Assembly (NCBI GenBank): GCA_965113315.1
Contig: OZ220363.1
From: Podarcis vaucheri
Taxonomy: Eukaryota
Direction: 5' to 3' (one strand)
DNA length: 64,000 nucleotides
Shown here: positions 23,043 through 47,392 of the stretch, in pieces
Position numbering within the stretch: position 1 is the stretch's first letter
How the letters are laid out: the number at the start of each line of letters is the position of its first letter
Translations under genes and position numbers: made by a program
Notes under the pieces: generated by a model
The model's database searches: none
The model's input: only the letters and a program-made list of their open reading frames with translations
What the model was told of the DNA's origin: nothing

Positions 23043-26000
23043 GAGAGAATGTTCTACGTGTGGTTGAACTGAATTCACAAATGACTCTTATGGAAGTAAT
23101 GATTACTATTACCACTATTCCTATAACTGTCACGATCAATTACACTTTTAAAACCAATTAGCCATGTAGCTCTTAAATGATAAGCAGATGGAATCTAAAT
23201 CAATTTGCATGTTGCAAAACCTCACTGAGTAAGGAGACAGTTGCACCTTAGTGTGGGAACATATAAGACATTGGTTAAAAGGAGAAAAATCTACCACTTT
23301 GTGGTAGAAGGAAATAACCTCATGCATATTTCAATCAGATTTGCAACATTTGCAACATTGACACTGCAATAAACAAAAACCTAGGCCCCAGGCTGCAAAA
23401 ATATAACATGTTCAGTACAGTGTGGAAGGTTTAAAAGACATGTTGACAATGATTGCAGCTGACCTCTACCAACTTCTGTTGTTTCCTGTGGTTCTTACCT
23501 AAGAGACAATGTCACAGCACCAGCATCACTGAGAAAAGTAAACCATTTGCTCATTTTCCATGTAAACTAAGACCTTTAAGTCTCTTTCCCATCAAATTAG
23601 GCACAAGGAAGTGGGAGTCAGCATGTGTGCAACCTGCACAGGTTGCTGGAGCTGATGGAAGTTGTGGTCCAAATCATTTGGAGAGCGCTAGGTTGGCAAA
23701 GCCTGCTAACAATCCTGAGTCCTGGAGCTTTGGTTTGCTGTTACCCAAATTATTAATCTGGAGACACACTGAACCTGTGAGATTGAGTTGAATAACTGCA
23801 CTGATTGATCAACTGGCAACAGACTTACGTAAGTCATTTAATCCCTTTGATTTCAGCGCATCTGCTCTGACTAACACTGAATAGCACCCGCTTTGTTCAA
23901 ATGGGGCTTACTCATCTAAGTGTGCATAGGACTGCTGCCTGGGACTTGCCCCCACAAATACCACTACTTTTAAAAATATATTCCATGTCATTTCAGAGTC
24001 GGACACTCCTCAGAATGAACCTAGCGTAATGCCCCTAGCGCAATAGGAAGGGAAGTGGTTTTCACATTACTTTTATGTGTATGATGGCTGAAATAATTCT
24101 GAAGCAGCACCGTCCGGTTCCTGAAGATGCTGAACCAAAAAGAAGAACCAATGAAGCAACAGAGGCTGGTGTATCAAGGGAAGCTTCCTTGTACTGTATG
24201 GCCTAACATAAGACAAGTCCACTCTCTCCTATTGTTCATTCTGTGGGGTGAGCTATATCGCTGAGGTTTCCGTTCTGTACACATTGTGAAACCATTCTAA
24301 CAGCCGCCAGTTTACAAATTCATTAATCTAGATGAACTGCTTTGTGCATTTTTTTAGTGAGTCATTTGTGCCTCATTTGTTAAATAATAGCCAACTTTCA
24401 ATAGCCAAAGGAAGTGGCGCAGGATTCCTAATACACCTTTCTCTGCAAGTATTGCCTAAGTTCCTCATATTTGCACCATGACAAAGTGAGGTGCAGTAAA
24501 TTCACTGACGTGCAGGTGTCCATTACATACCCAGTGTTACAGTCTGTGGCTTGTACAGAGTTCTGAAGGGCAAAATAAAATGTTTGCTGTTACCAGGCAA
24601 TACCAGGCTCTTCAACTGATAAAACTGCCTTCATCAAGAAATATTGTATTCACACACATTCTCTCTCTCTCTCACTGGTGTGGTGTAGTGGTTAAGAGCA
24701 GAAGACTCGTAATCTGGGTAACCGGGTTCGTGTCTCCGCTCCTCCACATGCAGCTGCTGGGTGACCTTGGGCTAGTCACACTTCTTTGAAGTCTCTCAGC
24801 CCCACTCACCTCACAGAGTGTTTGTTGTGGGGGAGGAAGGAAAAGGAGAATGTTAGCTGCTTTGAGACTCCTTCGGGTAGTGATAAAGCANNNNNNNNNN
24901 NNNNNNNNNNNNNNNNNNNNNNNNNNNNNNNNNNNNNNNNNNNNNNNNNNNNNNNNNNNNNNNNNNNNNNNNNNNNNNNNNNNNNNNNNNNNNNNNNNNN
25001 NNNNNNNNNNNNNNNNNNNNNNNNNNNNNNNNNNNNNNNNNNNNNNNNNNNNNNNNNNNNNNNNNNNNTTTTCTTTTGTGGAATCAAAGTGACCAACTGT
25101 GGGCTGCTTTGCACATCATTGCTTACCATGTACGAGCAGACATCTCACACTTCATTCCTCCCTTAGCTCTTGTGGCAGCAACAAGCCAGAATCCTTGGCT
25201 TAGAGTTGATGTCTGGGTCCAGGCACTGTGGTTTGTTTTCTCTCAAACAAGACATGATCAGGAAGCCAAGAACGAGCCTTGGCTTCAGACCATGCTTTGG
25301 CATGTGTGACTTGACACATCCCCAAGCCTGGTTTGCGTATGCTAAGCTAAGGACCATGGCTTGTTGCTCCACTTGTGCCAAGGGAGGAAGGAAGTGGGAG
25401 CCAGGCCTTATGCTGTTAGAATGGCATCACACACAAAAACACACATAAGAGGGAGGTGTTAGTAGGTTCTGGGGAGCCCTAAGGTTTGCACAAGTGCAAA
25501 AACCTTTAGGGGGAAAACCCCAAAAGGGTGGGAGGGGGCTGCAAAAATAGCCCCAAGAAGGCTGAGCACATGCAGCAGCCACAAAATGCTGATTGACTGA
25601 TTTGGTTGGGCGGGAATGACAGAAAAGCAGGTGGAAGAGCAATGGAATAGAGTATTCTGAACTCCACATTTTGCAACATTTTGTCTCACATACGACTTTT
25701 AATTAATATTGAAGAAAGACACCACTTAATGCTGAATCAATACTTCACTCACACATGTTCAAGTCATTGTGCGATGGCTGCAGTGAGCAGGTGGCAAACA
25801 TGGTGAGCCCATAATCTACTCCCCTGAAGAGTTATTATGTGGTGTGAACTTTCACTAGGAAGCTAAGTAAAATTCTGTGGAGCTGCTTGGTTCATGGCTT
25901 TGTTTCAGGTGGAAACATTTCCCACAAGTTCTAAATGGCCTGAAGAGTTGTCCATGCATGCTGGCTGTGACTCTCCAGGGATCCAGACTGGGTACATACC

Positions 26001-29000
26001 CAGAAAATGGAAGGAATTGAACTGGGAACCGTCTGCATTCGAAGCAAATGCTCTGTGACGGCCACTGAGTCTCAGCCCTCCCCCCATGCCAGTGCTATAG
26101 CAGGTACATGGCTATGCTGGCACTGGGTTCACAAGGGTGCTCAAAGCACAGCTGCTTCCCCTTCTTCCTAGGAAAGATTTCCTAACAGACCACATTTTTT
26201 GCAGACTAAGAAAAAGGAAACCCACAATTGCTGCCTGTTAAACCAGGAGGTTTGATGATATTAACCATCTGGTTGTTGTTGTTTTTTTTTTAAATTCTGG
26301 TGTTTTTTATGTTGTTGGTTTAGTTCCTAATCGGTTTTAATCACACCACCTATTTTTCACAAGGTGGCTTGAGGACCTTAGAAATGTGTCTAAGTTTCAA
26401 AACATCAGTGCTCACAGAAGACTGCAAGAACAATAGTACAGTGGTACCTCGGGTTAAGTACTTAATTCGTTCCGGAGGTCCGTACTTAACCTGAAACTGT
26501 TCTTAACCTGAAGTACCACTTTAGCTAATAGGGCCTCCTGCTGCTGCTGCGCCGCCGGAGCACAATTTCTGTTCTCATCCTGAAGCAAAGTTCTTAACCT
26601 GAAGCACTATTTCTGGGTTAGCAGAGTCTGTAACCTGAAGCGTATGTAACCCAAGGTACCACTGTATGTTGGGAGGACTTAACAAGGGGCTAAGACTGGA
26701 GGGACAATCTGGAGACAAAGAGCATATAAATCTTGAGACGAGGAGAAATTTATCAGATGAGTTACCAGAAATCATCATTTAAAGAATTCCTTCTTCTAAA
26801 GCTGAGAGTACAATGAAAAGTCGGGCCACATTCATGGTGCCTGGGGTATGTGCACTAACTTTATTCAAACTACAACTGACCCCAAATTGCCTTACCCTGG
26901 GCACGTATTATTTGTTCAAGCCAATGCAGTTTTCTTTAATCAAACACACTCTGTGCCCTCAAGGTACAAGCAGACCTTGTGTTGCTTTAATTTTAGGTTC
27001 TTGACACACTATAATCTTCTTTGCTCCAGTACAGAAGAGCGAACTGGATGACCTTCGGATGCTACAATTATGTGATTCTAATAGCACGAATTTCTCCTCT
27101 TACCCATTTTTCTCCAGCATCACTGTAAACACTGATTCGGGGAACACGATCCACCAGCTGAAAAAAGCGAGCTGCAGCTATTTTTGCTTTGGCATAGTTT
27201 GGCGTATAGGAGGATGCTCTTCCTAATGCAGTTCCACTGGTCACAATAGCAGAAATCACCCTGAAATCAGGAAGGAAAGACGTCAGCTTACATGACGCTT
27301 AGGAAGAAGAGCTGCAGGTCTACTATCCTGTTTCCATCAGTGGCCTGCCAACTATGTCAAGCAAGGCTGGAAGGCAACAGCCTCCCCCCCCTCCCCATGG
27401 TTGGTCTCCAATAACTTATATATCCAGAGATATACTGCCTCTTAACACTGAGTTGTCATTCAGTTTTATCATGCCCACAAATGTGTCTGTTGAGAATGCA
27501 CGGTCAACTAACAGGTTCTATTTGGGAAAGATAATTTGTGTGGGTGTGTTTCTGTTCCTTTACCTAAAGACATAGCTGTAGTGAAGTCCTTCCTTGTCAA
27601 CCAAAAATCCTCCATACCGATAGGAGACCGAATTGGCTATAAACAGAATACTCTGTGCAAAACCAAAGCAGAATCCATAAACATTTGCTTTTTTGACTGC
27701 TGCTCTGTAAGGGACTTCCAGCTCTTTCTCATATGCTTCAATAAATTTTTTCTCCTTCCCAATTCCTGCGACAGTCCTGATGTTTGCAAGTGCTTCATTG
27801 GAAATCTGTTGAAAAGAAAAGGAAATGGAGGAGTAGCAAAGAGCTATTAGATGTCAGTGTGAGAGATATGGGCCATACATNNNNNNNNNNNNNNNNNNNN
27901 NNNNNNNNNNNNNNNNNNNNNNNNNNNNNNNNNNNNNNNNNNNNNNNNNNNNNNNNNNNNNNNNNNNNNNNNNNNNNNNNNNNNNNNNNNNNNNNNNNNN
28001 NNNNNNNNNNNNNNNNNNNNNNNNNNNNNNNNNNNNNNNNNNNNNNNNNNNNNNNNNNNNNNNNNNNNNNNNNNNNNNNNNNNNNNNNNNNNNNNNNNNN
28101 NNNNNNNNNNNNNNNNNNNNNNNNNNNNNNNNNNNNNNNNNNNNNNNNNNNNNNNNNNNNNNNNNNNNNNNNNNNNNNNNNNNNNNNNNNNNNNNNNNNN
28201 NNNNNNNNNNNNNNNNNNNNNNNNNNNNNNNNNNNNNNNNNNNNNNNNNNNNNNNNNNNNNNNNNNNNNNNNNNNNNNNNNNNNNNNNNNNNNNNNNNNN
28301 NNNNNNNNNNNNNNNNNNNNNNNNNNNNNNNNNNNNNNNNNNNNNNNNNNNNNNNNNNNNNNNNNNNNNNNNNNNNNNNNNNNNNNNNNNNNNNNNNNNN
28401 NNNNNTGTAAGTTTGGTTTCCACACCAGTTTACTAAGAATCTCTAGTTTTGAACTGATTCAGTTGAACTTACCAAGGTCAGGCCAATGGAGACACTCTAG
28501 GCCCTCATACCCAAATCATCTCCTCAGTCTGAGGAACTTACCTCATTGAATAGCCACACAGACTTACTTTGCTTTTCACTTTGTGTTCCACCTCTAACCC
28601 TTGCCTGTCTATCTCTACCAGCAGCCTGTCTTTGATCATATCCTTGAATTCTATCTCTCTGATCCTTGTCTGCTACCACTGGAACCTGACTACTAGCATA
28701 TCTTTGCCCATGTTCTTGCCTTCTGGCCCTCTTACTGCAGCTAGTTTCAGAATCTGACCAAGGCCTGACCCCAGGTTTCCTAATCTAATATTATTTTTTT
28801 ACTGTACTGGTGACTTTTCCAATATTGGGCAAGAAGAAATTCCTGGCATGGGTTCTCATATCTGGGCGAGGGTGATGCTGTCTACATAAGCATCTTAAGT
28901 ACACATTGACAATAGAGCTAAACAAACAAATGGCTTGTCTTAGCTTGTTCTGCTCCTATTCTTTATCACATTCTTAAGTTGCTGGTAATAGCTGTGGACA

Positions 29001-36100: not shown

Positions 36101-37334
36101 ATGTCCGCCTCCTAGAATGCATGAAACTGGCTCTTAATGCAAGACCCCAACCCCCCTGCTCATCTCCAGAATACTGGTGTTTATGGGTCTGTTGAGGAAA
36201 CAGTCATGTCTTTTTTTGCAACTGACTCAACCCACAAGTTTCAATCATACATTCTCCAACAGTTTACAAAACTGTTGGTGGGCCTGTCATTGTAACAGAA
36301 GACCCTCCTTCCCAAGATAGACCTCTCCCCACCACCACCAATGAATTCCAGAGCACCCCCAGAAGCCTATGAACCTCAAGATTCTGGAATGCCGCTGCCC
36401 GGTCCTTGGGGTCTGCTGGGAGAGCCAATTGTCAACAGTCCCCTTCCCCAACCTGATGTTCTGCATGGGAATTGGGCAAATGACCACGAATGTTCAAAAA
36501 CTACTAAAAGCACCAAGCCAAAATGTTGGAAATGAAGCAATAAGGACTGCTTGGCACACTGTTGGCACGCAGTTGTCCTGCATAATACAAGGGTAGTGAA
36601 AAACCATATTCAATACAAGAAGGAGGAAATTGGTCATGACCTACTCCAAGAATCTGACTGAAAAGCAAGGCATAGAGTGGGTTGACTGCCCCGTTGAAGC
36701 CTGCTCCAAGGGATCCAATCAGCATGTAGGGCCATTCAGGAGCATTGTATTTCAGAATTCTGGTAACATTAGCAGGCTTCACTTCTTCCACTTTCACAGC
36801 CGTTGGCTCCTAAAAGAGAAAACGGGCAAATATGTTGATATTCTTCTTTCCGTGCTGCCCAGTAGAAACTTCGAGGAAGGGTTATACAGCGAGCTTTTCA
36901 AGAGGACCAGAGAAAGGAAACAAAATGGATGTTTTTGTCAAATAACGACCTTCTTAAATGGACTGTCATCTTCTTCATACTGCCCGGTGCTATAGATATG
37001 CTCCGAATGGTTCTGGGCAACTGACATTGGGTGGTCCGGTACTATATTTGACAACTGAGATCTGGAACGCTGTCGAAGGGAAGCTCTATGAAAGAATAAA
37101 GAGAAAAGGTGAAGTCTTAGGAACAGCAGTTTAAGGAATTTGCATCTAGCGTTATTACTTATCACGATCATAGTTTACGGAAATACTTACTATACCTATA
37201 TCCTGAGATTTATGGCACAAAGCTTGACATGTTTGCTCAGAAGTAAGTCCCACTAAGTTCAAAGGGGAAACTTCCAAATAAGGGCTCCTCACAGTATTAA
37301 GCCTTCATCCCGATTTGTTTGCACAAAACTTAAA

Positions 37335-37369
<35 letters not shown>

Positions 37370-39582
37370 TATTATTAATTAACAAGCCTTCTGCTCCTGT
37401 CCCTTTGCCAGTTCATAGAATACCCATTCTCAATAGTGGGCTGATTCTCATTAAAAAAATAAAACTGCCAGGTCAAACTCCAAAAGAAACTGGTTGCTGC
37501 CTGTCATATTGGGAGGCGCCCAGAGTGGCTGGGGAAACTCAGCCAGATGGGCAGGGTATAAATAATAAATTACCATCATCATCATCATCATCATCATTAT
37601 CATCATCATCATCATCATCATCATATGTCTAGGGGTGCTACATCCTTTTTCCTCACCTGAAGCAAAACAGGAACGTGCTGTTACAAGGCTGCATTGTGTT
37701 GTGTTTTGTCCCCCACTGAAAGGCTTACCTCAAGCTGTCCCGATAACTTCCCCTGACGAAAGACTGCGTTTTCTCAAGATTTGGTTCGGCTGCTGTAAAA
37801 CAAAGCCAAAGAAGCCCATCAGAAAGTGAGATCATCCATTCCATTCTTATATTTTGGTATGTGTTTACAGTGTATAAAGCAAACCCGTTACAAGGCTGAA
37901 AGTTTTTGCTTCATGGTGGTTTGCTAAATAGTCTACCTGAAGCACAGCAATTCTCTTTAGTTCAAAAAAGCGTGAGCTTAACTTAAAGTACACTTATTTG
38001 GCAGAGCAGCTTTTTAAGGGTCCTGGATGTGCTCCTTTAGCAGCCCATCAGTTGTCCACACATGGTCCTATGGCCCCATGTTGAGCTGTATGGCAATCAC
38101 TGGATCTGCAAAAGGAAGCTATGAAGAACAATGCTCTTTGCATGTACAAAGCACAGACCACTAGCACATGAAAGGTCTTGAGCAGCTGCCACACTAAGGA
38201 TAGAAGCGAGCAGACATAGGAGCCAACTCCTAGGGGTCAATGTCCCTTTGCCCCCCCAAACTATTTGAAGCCCCCCCACCCCAAGTTGAGACAGGCATTG
38301 CCAGTCAAATGGTGTGCATACATTGTGTCTTGCGATCTATTATGTGGGGTGGGGCTTACCTGCCCTCCCCCCAATATTTTATTCGAGTTGGCACACCTGC
38401 GAGCAGAAAAGCTACATGTTTTTGTTGGGGTGTACCACTTCAAGCGGGATGGGGGTGGTGCTGTGGGTTAAACCACAGAGCCTAGGGCTTGCCGATCAGA
38501 AGGTCGGTGGTTCGGATCCCTGCGACGGGGTGAGCTCCCGTTGCTTGGTCCCTGCTCCTGCCAACCTAGCAGTTCGAAAGCACGTCAAAGTGCAAGTAGA
38601 TAAATAGGTACCGCTCTGGCGGGAAGGTAAACAGTGTTTCCGTGCACTGCTCTGGTTCGCCAGAAGCGGCTTAGTCATGCTGGCCACATGACCAGCTGTA
38701 TGCCGGCTCCCTCAGCCAATAAAGCGAGATGAGCGGAACAACCCCAGAGTCGGTCACGACTGGACCTAATGGTACCTTTACCATTACCACTTCAAGCTAC
38801 AAGGGGTAGCTTGCATGTTCGAATATTCCCTCACCTCAAATTATCACTGCAAATACACAGCTAGAATGTCAAGATATGAAAGCTAAATTATAACCATTTT
38901 ATCCTGATGTACTGATTTTACAGATACAGATATGTTTCATTCCGAGCAGAATTCAAGCATGCAGTCTCCCCTCCTACACTCTGAAATGGTGAATCGCAGC
39001 ACTCTGTCCTTAGTTTATTCTCACAAATGCAGGGGACAATGGCTCAAGGCTGCTATAATTTTCTTCTTCACTGGTGATTAGGGAACACAGTGGGAATGGA
39101 AGCAGCCCTGAGACTTAACAATTTTAACAAGATGTTAAACTGTTTTTATATGCAACAACTGCGGCAAGAGTATTGTTAGCCCAGAAATGGAAACAAGAAG
39201 AAATTCCGATGAAAGAAGAATGGCAGACGAAATTAATGGACTATGCAGAATTGGACAAAATGACAGGAAGGATTCGAAACCTGCGGGACCAGAAATTTAC
39301 AGTAGATTGGAAGACGTATATGAATTATTTGAAGAGCAACTGTAATCAACAAATTATGCTAGTAGGACTACAAGAAGTTTTGTAAGGAGAAATATACGAA
39401 GTGTTACAAAGTAGAAAAAGATAAAGATATTGGTTATGAGTTTGAAATGCAATAGGGAAGATAAGAAATGCATACTAAGAGATTAGATTGGAAAATTTTC
39501 AGACAGGATTGATGGAAGTAAAAAAAATGAATAGGATGTAAAAGTATGTTTAATTACTGTTGAAAATGGTATGTTAAAAAAC

Positions 39583-39618
<36 letters not shown>

Positions 39619-42600
39619 GGTTTTGGTGTCTTCGGGTGTCTTCCCGTGTAAGAGTCAGGGTGTCTGTGCGACGTTTCGACGAGGTCTCACTCGTCATCTT
39701 CAGGCTGGTGCTTTCGGCTTCTTGTTACTGGAACAGAGCAGAGTCTGGTGTTTGAGTTCCTATAAATACTGTTGAGGGGTGTGGTGTATAGCCTCCAACG
39801 TTCTGGGCAGAGAGGAAGTTCCTAGATTAGTGTGCCTTTTCTTCTTTTGTTCCTTAATTACTTGAGGGATATCTTGGGTGATTTCATGAGTGATATTCTG
39901 AATATCACTGGGTGGGTCATTAAGTGTAGATTAGTTGCTAAAGCTTTCGTGTCTTGACCTCTTGGGCTTGTGAAGAGTTTTTCTGAGAAGATGGCTGCGC
40001 TGCATTTAGTTGTGCTCTGGCTTGGCTTCGTGTATAGGGGCGAGCTATGGTTTTGTGCCTTGTGCCAGCCAGATCTGTGTAGGGATTGCAGGGGGGTGCA
40101 GCATCCGGAGGTGCCACTATAGTTTGGCTACTGGATGGAGTCTGTAATATGTCTGTGGAGAGGGTCTGGGTTTGGGTCTGGTGTGGTTGATTGGTGACGG
40201 CGTTCTGTGTGCCTCTGGTTCTGGTGTCGGTTTTTGTGGGGAGGGCTAATTTCCAGATGTCTGGCAGGCGGGACGTGTCGTCACGCTTGTTCATGTTGTG
40301 AGGGTGTTTCTCTATCTCGATGGCTTCCATGATTATTCTCTTGTGGTGATGTTCCATGTTAAAGAGCAATTTGGAATCTGCAAAATTAATTTCGTGTCCT
40401 GTTTCTTTCATGTGTTGGAAAAGAGAGGAAGTTTTTTCTTCTTTTTTGACGGCATTCTTGTGTTCTGCGATACGTGCATTTATTCGTCTGTTTGTTTGTC
40501 CAATGTACGTGGCTGGGCAGACTTTGCAGGGTATTTCATAGACCCCTTGGTTTTCCAGCTGGATTTTGTCTTTTGGGTTTCTGAGGATATTGGCTATTTT
40601 TTGGTTGGTGCAGAAGGCTGTTTTGATATTGTGTTTATGGAGGATTTTGCTGATTTTGTCTGTAGTGCCCTTGATATAAGGAAGGAGGGCCATGCCATTG
40701 TTTTCTTCTGTGTCTTGGTTTTTGGGGGGTGTTTCTTTTTGGATTAGCTTCGTAACCCTGTTTTTCTGGTATCCATTGGCGATTAACACATTTGAGAGAT
40801 TCTGTAACTCAGTTGTCAAGTGGTCTTTGTCAGCCAGGCGTTTGGTTCTGGAGATGAGAGTCTTGGCTACGGAGTTTATTTGTGCAGGGTGGTGGTGTGA
40901 TTGTGCATGTAAGTAGCGGTTGGTGTGTGTGTTTTTCCGGTAGATAGTGTGTCCTAGGGAGCCATCAGGTTTTTTGTAGATTAGGACGTCAAGAAAGGGG
41001 AGTTGGTTGTTGTCTTCTATTTCCATAGTGAATTGTATTTTGGGGTGTAGGCTGTTGAGATGTGTGAGGAAGCTATCTAGTTTTTCTTTCCCGTGTGGCC
41101 AAATTACAAAGGTGTCGTCAACATATCTGAGCCAAAGTTTGGGTTTGTGTTCTGACTTGTCTAAAGCATTGGTTTCAAAGTGTTCCATGTACAAATTTGC
41201 GATGACCGGTGAGAGGGGTGATCCCATAGGTGCTCCTTCTATCTGTTTGTATCTTTGTCCATTGTGGATGAAGTACGTGTTGGTTAGGCAGTGGTTGGTC
41301 AGGTCCAGGATGTATTTGGGGGGGTTGTATTTGTTTTGAATGGCTGTCAAGGCTTCATTAATGGGCACTTGAGTGAAGAGAGATACAACATCGAAGCTCA
41401 CAAGTAGGTCATCGGGATGTAGGTATTGTTTCTTTATTGTTTCTATGAACTGGAAGGAGTTAGTAACGTGTGAAGCGATGGATTCTGCATAGGGCTGAAG
41501 TTGCTTAGCGAGAAATTTAGCGAGATTTTGTAGAGGTGAGCCTATGGAGCTGACTATTGGTCTGAGTGGTGTTCCTTCTTTGTGTATCTTGGGGAGACCG
41601 TAGAGTTTGGGGCATCTGGATGATTTTTCTCTGGGGATGATTCTTAGCTGGATTTCTTCACTGATAGGAGAGGCTTTTATTTTGGATTTGGTGGTTTTTT
41701 CCAGATAGGTGGTGGGATCTGTTTTTATAGGTTGGTAGGTAGGGTCTTGGAGTAGATTTGATAGTTTTGCTTGGTAGTCCGATGTGTTCATCACAACAGT
41801 GGCGTTGCCTTTGTCTGCTGGGAGAATGATTATGTTGTTGTCTTTCCTCAGGTTGGTGAGTGCTTTCTGTTCTTCTTTGTGTAAATTGCTTCTGGGTGGT
41901 TTGCTGGAGCAGAGGATGTTGGTGACTTCAAGTCTGATTTTATTGGCTTCATCTGGGTCGATTTTGGTCAGGCTAGCTTCGACTCCGCATATGATGTTTT
42001 CCGTGGGGATGCGTCTCGGGGCGACTGCAAAGTTGAAACCTTTGGAGAGTACTTTGGTTTCAGTTGGGGTGAGGATCCTGTTTGATATGTTATGTACTGT
42101 TTGTTTCATGGGTTGTTGTGGAGGGTGGCTGGGCTTCTGGCGTTTCTCTAGTTTGTAGAGTTTGTTGGTGTGTCTGTCTGTCTTATGTGAGGTCTCAGTT
42201 TCAGCTCTCCAGACGGCTAGTTGTTTGCATTTGTCCCAGAGTGCAGGGTGGATTTTGTTACATAGTTTGAGGTGAAGAGTGAGCAGATCTTTGTTGGTTT
42301 GGTTTAGTAGGTATCTTTTCTTATGTATTTCGTTTCTGATTAGGGATAGTTCAGTTCGTTTCAGGATCCTTTCGGTAGCTGGGGTTTTAGAGTGGAATTT
42401 AAGTTGGAAGCATGTGGGAGTTAAGTTGTTGTCTCGGCAGTTGCGTAGGAACAGGAGATCACATAAGATGGTGGCTCTTCGGATTTCTAGTTTCTCGTAG
42501 GTTCTTGTCAGCTGGAAGGTTTCCTCCCCGTAGAGGTGAGATATTTGCTTTCGTAGATTTTCACGGGTACAGGAATGCAGGTTTTGGTGTCTTCGGGTGT

Positions 42601-44447
42601 CTTCCCGTGTAAGAGTCAGGGTGTCTGTGCGACGTTTCGACGAGGTCTCACTCGTCATCTTCAGGCTGGTGCTTTCGGCTTCTTGTTACTGGAACAGAGC
42701 AGAGTCTGGTGTTTGAGTTCCTATAAATACTGTTGAGGGGTGTGGTGTATAGCCTCCAACGTTCTGGGCAGAGAGGAAGTTCCTAGATTAGTGTGCCTTT
42801 TCTTCTTTTGTTCCTTAATTACTTGAGGGATATCTTGGGTGATTTCATGAGTGATATTCTGAATATCACTGGGTGGGTCATTAAGTGTAGATTAGTTGCT
42901 AAAGCTTTCGTTGCTAAAGCTTTCGTGTCTTGACCTCTTGGGCTTGTGAAGAGTTTTTCTGAGAAGATGGCTGCGCTGCATTTAGTTGTGCTCTGGCTTG
43001 GCTTCGTGTATAGGGGCGAGCTATGGTTTTGTGCCTTGTGCCAGCCAGATCTGTGTAGGGATTGCAGGGGGGTGCAGCATCCGGAGGTGCCACTATAGTT
43101 TGGCTACTGGATGGAGTCTGTAATATGTCTGTGGAGAGGGTCTGGGTTTGGGTCTGGTGTGGTTGATTGGTGACGGCGTTCTGTGTGCCTCTGGTTCTGG
43201 TGTCGACTTGACAACTTGACAACTGAGTTACAGAATCTCTCAAATGTGTTAATCGCCAATGGATACCAGAAAAACAGGGTTACGAAGCTAATCCAAAAAG
43301 AAACACCCCCCAAAAACCAAGACACAGAAGAAAACAATGGCATGGCCCTCCTTCCTTATATCAAGGGCACTACAGACAAAATCAGCAAAATCCTCCATAA
43401 ACACAATATCAAAACAGCCTTCTGCACCAACCAAAAAATAGCCAATATCCTCAGAAACCCAAAAGACAAAATCCAGCTGGAAAACCAAGGGGTCTATGAA
43501 ATACCCTGCAAAGTCTGCCCAGCCACGTACATTGGACAAACAAACAGACGAATAAATGCACGTATCGCAGAACACAAGAATGCCGTCAAAAAAGAAGAAA
43601 AAACTTCCTCTCTTTTCCAACACATGAAAGAAACAGGACACGAAATTAATTTTGCAGATTCCAAATTGCTCTTTAACATGGAACATCACCACAAGAGAAT
43701 AATCATGGAAGCCATCGAGATAGAGAAACACCCTCACAACATGAACAAGCGTGACGACACGTCCCGCCTGCCAGACATCTGGAAATTAGCCCTCCCCACA
43801 AAAACCGACACCAGAACCAGAGGCACACAGAACGCCGTCACCAATCAACCACACCAGACCCAAACCCAGACCCTCTCCACAGACATATTACAGACTCCAT
43901 CCAGTAGCCAAACTATAGTGGCACCTCCGGATGCTGCACCCCCCTGCAATCCCTACACAGATCTGGCTGGCACAAGGCACAAAACCATAGCTCGCCCCTA
44001 TACACGAAGCCAAGCCAGAGCACAACTAAATGCAGCGCAGCCATCTTCTCAGAAAAACTCTTCACAAGCCCAAGAGGTCAAGACACGAAAGCTTTAGCAA
44101 CTAATCTACACTTAATGACCCACCCAGTGATATTCAGAATATCACTCATGAAATCACCCAAGATATCCCTCAAGTAATTAAGGAACAAAAGAAGAAAAGG
44201 CACACTAATCTAGGAACTTCCTCTCTGCCCAGAACGTTGGAGGCTATACACCACACCCCTCAACAGTATTTATAGGAACTCAAACACCAGACTCTGCTCT
44301 GTTCCAGTAACAAGAAGCCGAAAGCACCAGCCTGAAGATGACGAGTGAGACCTCGTCGAAACGTCGCACAGACACCCTGACTCTTACACGGGAAGACACC
44401 CGAAGACACCAAAACCTGCATTCCTGTACCCGTGAAAATCTACGAAA

Positions 44448-44495
<48 letters not shown>

Positions 44496-47392
44496 AAGCA
44501 GCCCTGAGACTATGTAGGCCCTGTGCCTTATATTTCCAAACAATGTATCCCAGAGTAGTAAGAAGATGCTTTCAGTTAGAAGAACGCCAAGATGTCTGAG
44601 GTTATATCAGCTCTGCATGCTCCAACAACTCTTTCGGAAATCTGAAGCGTTCTTAAAAACGGACTGCAGCACAGCAAGAAGGCTTGTTCAGTTTGTGTCA
44701 GCAAAGAATGCTGGTTGAGGGGTCATCAAAATGTGACACTAGTAAAGTGGTCTTGCTCCCAGGGACCATAGCTCAGTAGCAGAGCACAGGCTGTGAATGC
44801 ATAAGAATCCAGATTTGAACTCCAGCATCTCCAGTTAACAGGATCACAGGTAGCCATAATGGGAAAGCGTGTTCTCCTTCATGGAGAGCACGTGTTGCGG
44901 TGGGGGCCGCCAGTACACTCCAAAGTTGTGGGGTGGGCTAATTGATCGTTGGCCACTGTTGTGATTGGGCTTCCCTTCTTGTTGGGAAGAAGTTAATGTT
45001 GCCATTTGTTGATTGACAGCCAGAAATGCTAAAACTCCTTGCACGAAGCTAGGGCTTCCTCTTTTCACCTGTGCATCGGATTGCCCGTCCCCCCTCTCTA
45101 TATTTAGGGTTGTTCGCTCCCTATATTTAGGGTTGTTCGCTTTGACCTTGCTATGCCTGTCATGGGGTCGTCTGCTCTTGGGGCAGGGGCCCAGTAGGAA
45201 TTTTGTCCATCTGGCTGATTGGCTGGGGCCATTTGGTTTTTGCCTACTGCGTAGCAAATTGTCACAACTTGTAAGGTTGCGGTTAGGCATTGGTTTATGG
45301 TTTGGTTGGTGGAGGGGCATGGATTGGCTGTGCCTGCCCCTCTAATGCTGCTGCTGCAAGGGATTCCATTAAAGGAATCGGGGGCTAACTATTGCTTGTC
45401 CACCCTGTCAAGGTGGCTTGGGCCATGCAAGAGCTCCTGGTTGCATTTGGGGAGGGCTGAGGGCAGGTTCCCTGCTCCGTCGCTACCCCCAAGTGTATTC
45501 CCCTTTTCTGACTTTCGCAGGCGTGCGGAATGTCAGTCTGTTCCCCATGGGGGGTGCAGATAGTCACAACCAATGCCTAAGCAACCACTCACATTTTTGT
45601 ATTTTAATAAAGTTGTGGCCAAAATTATGCCAAAAAAACCTTAAACAAAAAATTCTGTGAGATGTGTGAGTTATTGGGGTGGTCCTGGGGACCTCGACAC
45701 ATAAAGAGAGAGAGGTGCATCAGTGACCCAGAGATAAATGCACAAATAATCTAACCCTGGAATAAGGCACAGCTTGTTTTGTACCTATGTGTAGGACTGA
45801 TTTTTCATGGGACCATAGGGAAATAGTTGTGTTAGTACAGAAAAGGAAATTAATTCCTTGAGTTAGTAAACCTTGACCTCGTTTTCAGAAACGCAGAATA
45901 AGGTACTTGCTTTGCACCGGCGTGTCAGTGAGTGCCTTGTCCCCTTGGCTTTGCAAAGTTACCAGTGTGAAATAAACCCCTTTCCGTTCCATCAGCTCCT
46001 CGTGTTTCCCCCTTTCCACTGCTCTTCCATGCTCAAAGCCAATTATGACATCAGCAGTTCTGATTGAGGACAAGCGGTGAGCAATGGAGATGGCCGTGCG
46101 CCCAACGCGAGCCTAAAGCAATAGGGGGGGGGGAAATATCGGTGAAGCAAACAGATGAGTAAAACAGGTAGGCTTTGGTCTCTTTGCTTTTTTGTGTGTG
46201 GTCGGTCACGGAGCATGGAATGAAGCCTAACTGGTTTAAGGACATGCAAAGAGCTCTATTGGATCAGACTAATGGCCCATCAAGGCCACTCACCATTGCA
46301 AACCAGGTGCCTATGAGATGCTTGCAAGAGGGGCATGAATGCTGGTACACAGAAATCTGTACATTCTGTGTGTGCCCGTCAAGCTGTCTTACACCAGCAC
46401 TGATATTTATATTCATTTCCAAGCAAATGTTTGAAGAGCAGCATTCCTACCTCCCATCTCCAGCATTGCCTGCTATTTACTGAACAATTCCCCCCGCTTT
46501 TTAAACTTTGTGCTTGTGCGCTTCCTGGCTGTGCAGTTCTGGTATTGGAACACTCATCTACTCCCATATAAATGAGTACGAAAGGTTGGAAGCTTAAAAG
46601 CTGTGGGTTTCATTTAACTAAGACATACTCAGAGCAGACCCACTGAGATCAAAGGACTTCAGTCAGTCGTGCCCATGGATTTCAATGGGTCCATTCAGTA
46701 CAGGAAACACTACCTCTTCCATCTCATTCCCCAACATGACTCTTCCCAACAGCTCTTTGAGATCTGTGTTGTGAAAGTCTTTGGGGGTAAACTCTTCCCC
46801 ACCACAGGTTGAGCTTCTGATCTGCCACTGCTCCCTTCCCACGTTTCCACTGTTAACAAGCCTAACAATTCTGGAAACTGCATGCATGTTTGTTGGTTAA
46901 TGGGAGGGTGTGAGGTTCTACGCTGTAGAACCTCGCATCCACTCTACTGATTTTCTTATGGAAACATGCAGCAAGTTCCAGAGCGCACATAGCGGGGGCC
47001 CGGCCTTGCTCCTAAAGGCATTTCAAGAACACCAATTTTGCATTGGAGCAAATGCAAAGCTCTGAATAGCACTGTCGTTGTTGTTGTTGCTAACTGGATT
47101 TTAGCCTGCCCTTCCTCTTTCTCTTCCCCACTCTGATCTCATCCTCACAAGAGAGATTGTGACTGCCTGAATGTGGGGGTTGAATATCGGATTCCCACTC
47201 CTACTCTGGCACTATAATCATTATATCACATTAGGTCTCCTAACCACACCTCACCATAATTTTGTATCTTGTAAACTTATTATAAAAAGAAAGTTGTGGA
47301 GGGGAGAAGAGACTAATCTCTACCATTAAGGAGATTATACTTAAGAGGGTGTGTGTGTTTTTAAAAGTTTCCTACCCCCACCCCCATGATAT

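Follow-up and report, generated by a model that had tools for sequence, protein, structure and literature searches.

A young Poseidon-type Penelope-like element with two oppositely oriented arms in a (TA)n tract of Podarcis vaucheri, consistent with priming from both ends of the target

Penelope-like elements (PLEs) are typically arranged as a partial tandem with an adjacent inverted 5'-truncated copy and a one-sided tail of 30-40 bp (PMC8557442, Fig. 2 legend), and the same layout is the most frequent form of Penelope in Drosophila virilis, where regeneration of the tandem is unexplained (PMC2377424, Fig. 1C). Both sources call the origin of the tandem and inverted forms open. For the Anolis element Poseidon (PAc), the protein cuts and extends both strands in vitro and is predicted to dimerize, two internal start sites bound the tail (the outer one at +111-118), and unprocessed RNA is the main substrate, ribozyme cleavage not being needed (PMC11167929). 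Circular RNA has been proposed as the template of more-than-unit PLE copies (PMC4209133) and self-priming as the source of inversions (PMC3846280); circles are reported for small retrozyme RNAs and are a proposal for full PLEs (PMC4209133, PMC7761336, 10.64898/2026.07.22.740005). Here we describe a PLE insertion in a 64,000-nucleotide stretch of Podarcis vaucheri DNA (contig OZ220363.1 of assembly GCA_965113315.1; the whole stretch is called the window). Our favoured reading, to which we give a probability of about 0.55, is that a young Poseidon-type PLE entered a (TA)n tract in one event, in which its protein cut both strands and reverse-transcribed uncleaved linear RNA from both free 3' ends.

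Repeat searches delimited the whole insertion at 39614-44450 and resolved it into two arms joined 5'-to-5', each outer end abutting (TA)n. Its parts are as follows.

39587..39615, no strand: left target half, (TA)14.5
39614..43205, minus strand: long arm of 3592 nt, made up of a full unit and, upstream of it, a partial copy; 3' end at nt +84 of the open reading frame (ORF)
42575..43205, minus strand: upstream 5'-truncated copy (pseudo-long terminal repeat, pseudo-LTR), matching 39614-40229 exactly apart from a 15-nt duplication
42895..42926, minus strand: the 15-nt tandem duplication, covering the ORF stop codon and confined to the upstream partial copy (one of three copies)
43206..43213, plus strand: opening bases of the short arm, repeated over 8 nt at the 5'-to-5' join
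43214..44450, plus strand: short arm, inverted, its 5' end truncated at ORF nt 1838 and its 3' end at +113 (to +118)
44422..44450, plus strand: 29-nt 'tail' on the short arm, which the outer end of the long arm lacks
44450..44493, no strand: right target half, (TA)22

A sequence-only reading of the window had proposed most of this anatomy, and it held up: both termini are element 3' tails abutting TA repeats, the join lies at 43205/43206, and the left arm, put at about 3590 nt or 1.2 units, measures 1.213 units of 2961 nt (3577 nt net of the 15-nt duplication, which that reading did not mention). The right arm, given as inverted and about 1.24 kb, is on the plus strand and spans 1245 nt (43206-44450) when the 8-nt repeat is included. 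Where the arms overlap they are identical (1208/1208 nt), and all three copies carry the same alleles at the six family-variable sites checked (6/6). On the element, 592 nt lie between the two 5' ends; at the join the arms share no microhomology with each other, and a 6-nt palindrome spans 43205/43206. The 5' part of the short arm is missing from the upstream partial copy, and the short arm is also without the 15-nt duplication. With 1.2-kb identical arms, and with both ends recurring as TA-abutting loose ends of other family copies, the structure is not due to chance, and the element is a young, intact copy.

The element encodes one long protein.

39938..42658, minus strand: intact 906-aa ORF with DKG at 282, reverse transcriptase (RT; YVDD 512-515) plus, at the C-terminus, an endonuclease of GIY-YIG type (GVY 705, YIG 718)

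The RT domain matched Pfam RVT_1 (E 7e-15), and the top protein match of the ORF, from Podarcis muralis, reached 96% across 72% of the query. An Anolis protein (P0023), whose N-terminus agrees with the RNA letters of Fig. S1B in PMC11167929, was 45% identical over 773 aa. A Vipera protein (P0002; 82% identity over 53% of the query, about half of the ORF) was far closer than the Anolis protein, possibly through horizontal transfer or a second squamate lineage. Together these matches make a lacertid lizard the probable host. No solved PLE structure was found among the four PDB matches. The locus combines a single ORF bearing the DKG motif, RT and C-terminal GIY-YIG endonuclease, a partial tandem forming a pseudo-LTR with an adjacent inverted 5'-truncated copy, a one-sided tail close to the usual 30-40 bp (29 nt here; the family ends are 34 nt apart in read mapping) and a minimal type I hammerhead motif within the pseudo-LTR, found by pattern and fold. 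By pairwise similarity and these features it classes as an endonuclease-bearing (EN+) PLE of the Penelope/Poseidon type. The sequence-only reading had stated that PLEs often carry partial-tandem and inverted pseudo-LTRs, which agrees with the published typical layout, one-sided tail included (PMC8557442, PMC2377424).

The hammerhead motif, CUGAAGA followed by a 6-bp stem II and GAAACGUC, was recovered by pattern search and folding in all three copies, in each of which it overlaps the ATG.

39670..39703, minus strand: hammerhead motif, left copy, same as the internal copy at an offset of 2961
42631..42664, minus strand: hammerhead motif, internal copy, overlapping the ATG and seamless across the predicted cut
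44332..44365, plus strand: minimal type I hammerhead motif, right copy, by pattern and fold, predicted cut after 44365 (ORF nt +28)
42722..42729, minus strand: TATA-like box in the pseudo-LTR, TATA-like on both strands, a putative promoter element

Rfam gave no hammerhead match in the window (its four matches were all to the TA run), and in an unconstrained fold of two hammerhead copies the dimeric core did not form. The left end lies 56 nt and the right end 85 nt past the predicted cut, matching the tails of about 55 and 85 nt first proposed. AT microhomology to the target, claimed for each end, stood at the left one; at the right it comes to one A, or to five of six bases if the end is read at 44455, where there is one mismatch. 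Of the unit's 1113 A positions, 11 match the TA primer at 5/6 bases, this long-tail site among them, and the unit contains 16 GCA[AT] sites. Folds of the tail region differed among the three segments folded, with the long-tail site unpaired in 3/3.

To place these ends within the family, contigs from 4 of 20 sequencing runs were mapped to 40826-43805, a stretch of the locus without redundancy; the number of contigs at either end does not give a number of copies. Among the ends listed (24 of 684), TA-abutting loose ends fell at 42541, the equivalent of the right end of this insertion, in all four runs (42, 16, 15 and 29 contigs) and at 42575, the equivalent of the left end, in three of them (23, 6 and 8 contigs). 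Both outer ends are thus family-wide 3' ends. The right end (+113 to +118) also falls within the +111-118 start window of the Anolis element, the two ORFs aligning with a one-codon offset.

Two independent priming events on opposite target strands are likely, and in this part the twin priming first proposed survives. The GIY-YIG domain would cut both strands of the self-complementary TA tract, and each 3'-terminal T would pair with the A in the GCA of one internal start site, the two sites lying a short way downstream of the hammerhead. Both ends would then be extended on uncleaved RNA, on separate molecules or on separate units of one tandem RNA, one cDNA (complementary DNA) crossing a second hammerhead to reach 3.6 kb, its partner ending after 1.2 kb. 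End-joining of the two cDNA 3' ends would leave the 8-nt stutter, and filling-in would complete the insertion. Simple fold-back is excluded because the long arm's end does not contain the short arm's 29-nt tail and the upstream copy does not contain the short arm's 5' part, so that deriving the short arm from a single fold-back of the long cDNA would need two more switches; nor is the join a tight hairpin, since the two 5' ends are separated by 592 nt on the element. Among the literature covered, which left out most subscription papers, we found no explicit statement that the inverted arm is a second priming at the other start site.

The L1-type form of twin priming did not survive. In L1, according to Ostertag and Kazazian in 2001, the second primer is reportedly internal and the two pieces are adjacent and non-overlapping in one RNA (an example of L1 twin priming is 10.1101/2024.12.14.628481). 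The present insertion does have two oppositely oriented cDNA pieces joined 5'-to-5' between target halves; its pieces, though, are not adjacent, non-overlapping parts of one RNA with an internal second primer. Twin priming of this kind on one monomer is ruled out by geometry, namely the 1208-nt overlap of the arms and the position of both outer ends at family 3' sites.

Related loci in other organisms were taken as the best 80 from metagenome contigs in a scan covering 16/64 parts, 49 of which were eligible, being 5'-truncated in the ORF with upstream DNA present. An inverted 3' copy adjoined the 5' end in 11 of the 49, so a tandem/inverted layout is common in the clade. Both outer ends were present in five of these 11, two of the five (L049, L079) having the shared tail on one arm only, and target duplications were found in none of the five. 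In three larger contigs long tandem arrays lie downstream of related PLE ORFs (L026:9980-15736, L029:10234-11605 and L031:12132-14111).

Several observations weigh against two-ended priming. The short-tail site matches the primer by 2 nt only; the published both-strand extension in vitro comes from a population assay, not from single molecules; and an abutting inverted copy is missing in 38 of the 49 eligible related loci. None of the 32 listed pieces (of 23,049) spans the locus's own 43205/43206 join or its 15-nt duplication. Counting in favour of two-ended priming, joints in other family copies, of which 15 of 207 are listed, comprise nine head-to-head and four same-orientation joins plus two caused by the chosen stretch; the nine head-to-head joins all come from run X15, have differing breakpoint pairs, one contig each, and have 22-29 letters on their short side, for which they were flagged as weak. 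On the opposing side, five of the nine have breakpoints at ATTTA/TAAAT motifs, a motif picked post hoc, hinting that some inversions in the family are nested insertions. These five fall at two such motifs (42720-42732 and 42979-42986), three of them inside the TATA-like box. The motifs make up 3.5% of the pseudo-LTR part, where 3/6 breakpoints fall within 4 nt of one (P about 0.002, again post hoc), and they are possible endonuclease hot spots in the element's own pseudo-LTR. Finally, run X16 holds perfect palindromic fold-back joins at 42666 (one contig) and 42700 (four contigs), which could be library artefacts but agree, for some copies, with the self-priming proposed in PMC3846280; other copies of the family may arise by other routes.

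Of the rival explanations, the one that survives best is nonetheless unlikely: a single priming event with subsequent fold-back or self-priming (PMC3846280), or else a donor that was already tandem-plus-inverted and was copied in one pass. Palindromes are published at inverted PLE joins (PMC3846280) and occur in this family at the two X16 positions, a 6-nt palindrome lies across the present join and the arms are 100% identical. The 29-nt tail and the lack of the 15-nt duplication in the short arm, however, demand two extra switches, and 592 nt of the element separate the 5' ends; moreover, the other listed joins are each represented by one contig with its own breakpoint pair, which suggests that joins arise anew. 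In the X16 contigs themselves, the loose ends at 42666 and 42700, just upstream of the hammerhead, continue as their exact reverse complement.

A more-than-unit arm implies a template that is continuous across the ribozyme site, as a tandem, read-through or circular RNA would be, or else a jump across terminal redundancy. The sequence-only reading had the arms reading through the cleavage site, and this stands; its choice between a circular and an uncleaved tandem template named two possible forms and omitted the third route, the terminal-redundancy jump, and nothing at the locus picks the circle. The DNA leaves the form of the template undecided, and we favour uncleaved linear RNA over a circle. 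Most likely the more-than-unit arm came from such RNA, transcribed in tandem or by read-through, or else copied with a homology-guided jump, which would pass through the terminal redundancy of about 130-160 nt of a transcript initiated in the pseudo-LTR. The tilt towards linear uncleaved RNA comes from the published data and from the few 5' ends listed at 42700, below the TATA-like box. Among the listed ends, 5' ends lie at 42700 (two contigs in X15, four in X16) and at 42663-42666, none at the predicted cut; position 42700 is 22-29 nt below the TATA-like box and may be a transcription start.

Rather unlikely is two-ended priming on a covalently circular RNA of unit length, produced by hammerhead cleavage and ligation and copied by rolling-circle reverse transcription, as proposed in PMC4209133. 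The long arm is indeed a more-than-unit copy, seamless across the ribozyme cut as rolling-circle copying would have it, it continues upstream of the putative start near 42700 for another 505 nt, and the three copies agree at all six variable sites checked; all of this fits tandem RNA or a jump equally well. Ribozyme mutants of the Anolis element insert normally, and its RNA-seq reads neither start nor stop at the cut (PMC11167929); cleavage by minimal PLE hammerheads is poor (PMC4209133); and the family 5' ends listed at 42700 are as linear RNA would give. An extended version, in which an asymmetric dimer primes both ends of one double-strand cut, one subunit per tail site, on a hammerhead-made 3-kb circular RNA, is distinctly improbable. 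If true, it would amount to rolling-circle retrotransposition of a protein-coding element and account at once for the tandem, the inversion and the one-sided tail.

The remaining rivals depend on the target and its flanks, which hold the following features.

39096..39115, plus strand: left copy of a 20-bp direct repeat, which provides the only 12-mers shared by the two 3-kb flanks
44492..44511, plus strand: right copy of the repeat, perfect
39116..39586, plus strand: older inserted fragment with an 85-aa frame, without a Pfam match and with two uninformative homologues

The 20-bp repeat is likely the target-site duplication of an older insertion whose TA tail was the target. The fragment at 39116-39586 resembles a putative L1 ORF2 C-terminus and 3' UTR (untranslated region), an identity that neither the Pfam nor the homologue search confirmed. 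Read most simply, the element broke into the TA tail left by an older retro-insertion; the flanks would be original neighbours, since the repeat brackets older fragment, TA tract and element together.

It is very unlikely that the arms are separate insertions into one TA tract, the later having landed precisely on the 5' end of the earlier. The family does target TA tracts, and the breakpoints of other copies gather at AT motifs inside the element in the five of nine joins described above. Here, however, the join retains no TA bases and neither breakpoint is near an AT motif, the 3' end of the short arm adjoins the TA tract and the 20-bp repeat and not the remainder of an older copy, and the arms are identical over 1208 nt. 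Nested insertion was rejected for this locus on geometry. Misassembly of a high-copy repeat, through collapsed tandem units or an invented inversion, is likewise very improbable: although the family is very high-copy, two N runs lie elsewhere in the window and the locus's own join was not seen among the listed contigs, the window holds minority alleles (A at 42618, T at 42082), unlike a collapsed family consensus, private features set the three copies apart, the outer ends coincide with genuine ends of the family and the locus is flanked by the 20-bp repeat. An extra unit may be missing from the assembled locus.

The two alleles also bear on the family. The A at 42618 accounts for 0.36% (X15) and 0.77% (X16) of depth and for <1% in all four runs, and at 42082 the window carries T against 64-100% C. 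The A at 42618 at first seemed to prove a single template molecule, an argument we abandoned: in X16 the A allele itself has a depth of 5,438, near half of that over the 5' ORF (about 12,200), and may mark a common young subfamily. Summed depth over 42526-43125 is several to tens of times above that of the 5' ORF and falls beyond about 43125, a hint of numerous short copies the size of the pseudo-LTR or of a non-autonomous derivative. The family is very high-copy and apparently active. Short tandem stutters recur near cDNA 3' ends (15 nt at 42895-42926, 8 nt at 43206-43213 and, in another copy, a 26-nt double repeat at the X15 joint 42952->43467), which suggests either realign-and-extend synthesis by this telomerase-related RT or end-joining repair.

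Outside the insertion and its flanks, the window contains an exon near the element and two N runs, at 24891-25068 (178 bases) and 27881-28405 (525 bases), which are either assembly gaps or withheld sequence.

36645..36809, minus strand: exon of an ABCB11-like gene (bile salt export pump; E 5.5e-19)

This exon is about 2.8 kb from the element, which probably lies within an intron of the gene, the ORF of the long arm being on the same strand as the gene.

What the sequence-only reading understated is how much was already in print: the layout, the circular-template idea, two start sites, both-strand extension and uncleaved RNA. The locus is an ordinary PLE of known kind, the circle is neither new nor better supported than its alternatives, and two-ended priming is a reasonable reading that stays close to published biochemistry. 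What the locus adds is a 1208-nt overlap combined with a one-sided 29-nt tail, which together exclude L1-type twin priming on a monomer and simple fold-back. This copy does not solve the origin of the PLE forms; it is a clean, intact and young test case rather than a discovery, and it points to a very high-copy, apparently active family suited to counting start-site pairing and arm lengths.

Compared with known systems, the element is most fully matched by PAc (PMC11167929). The two share an ORF with RT and C-terminal GIY-YIG endonuclease, an AT-rich target, a hammerhead overlapping the ATG (predicted cut at +28 here, cut at +26 in PAc) and two internal start sites with the tail between them, the outer at +111-118. 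They differ in that ours is a separate family (45% identity) with a longer C-terminus and pure (TA)n targets, and in that its long-tail site matches the target at five of six bases, whereas PAc initiates at a non-homologous site; inverted copies are not discussed in the text of that paper. With the typical PLE layout, as in D. virilis Penelope and Adineta Pen2a (PMC3846280), it shares the truncated tandem before a full copy, the inverted 5'-truncated copy at the 5' end and the one-sided tail, of 29 nt here (34 between family ends in read mapping), without structural difference; a target duplication is unreadable inside (TA)n. Like the PLEs and non-LTR retrozymes for which circular templates are discussed, it has one hammerhead per unit and a seamless more-than-unit copy. 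Finally, as in L1 twin priming, RT would have extended both ends of the break and oppositely oriented cDNAs are joined 5'-to-5', but here both arms start at fixed 3' sites and overlap by 1208 nt.

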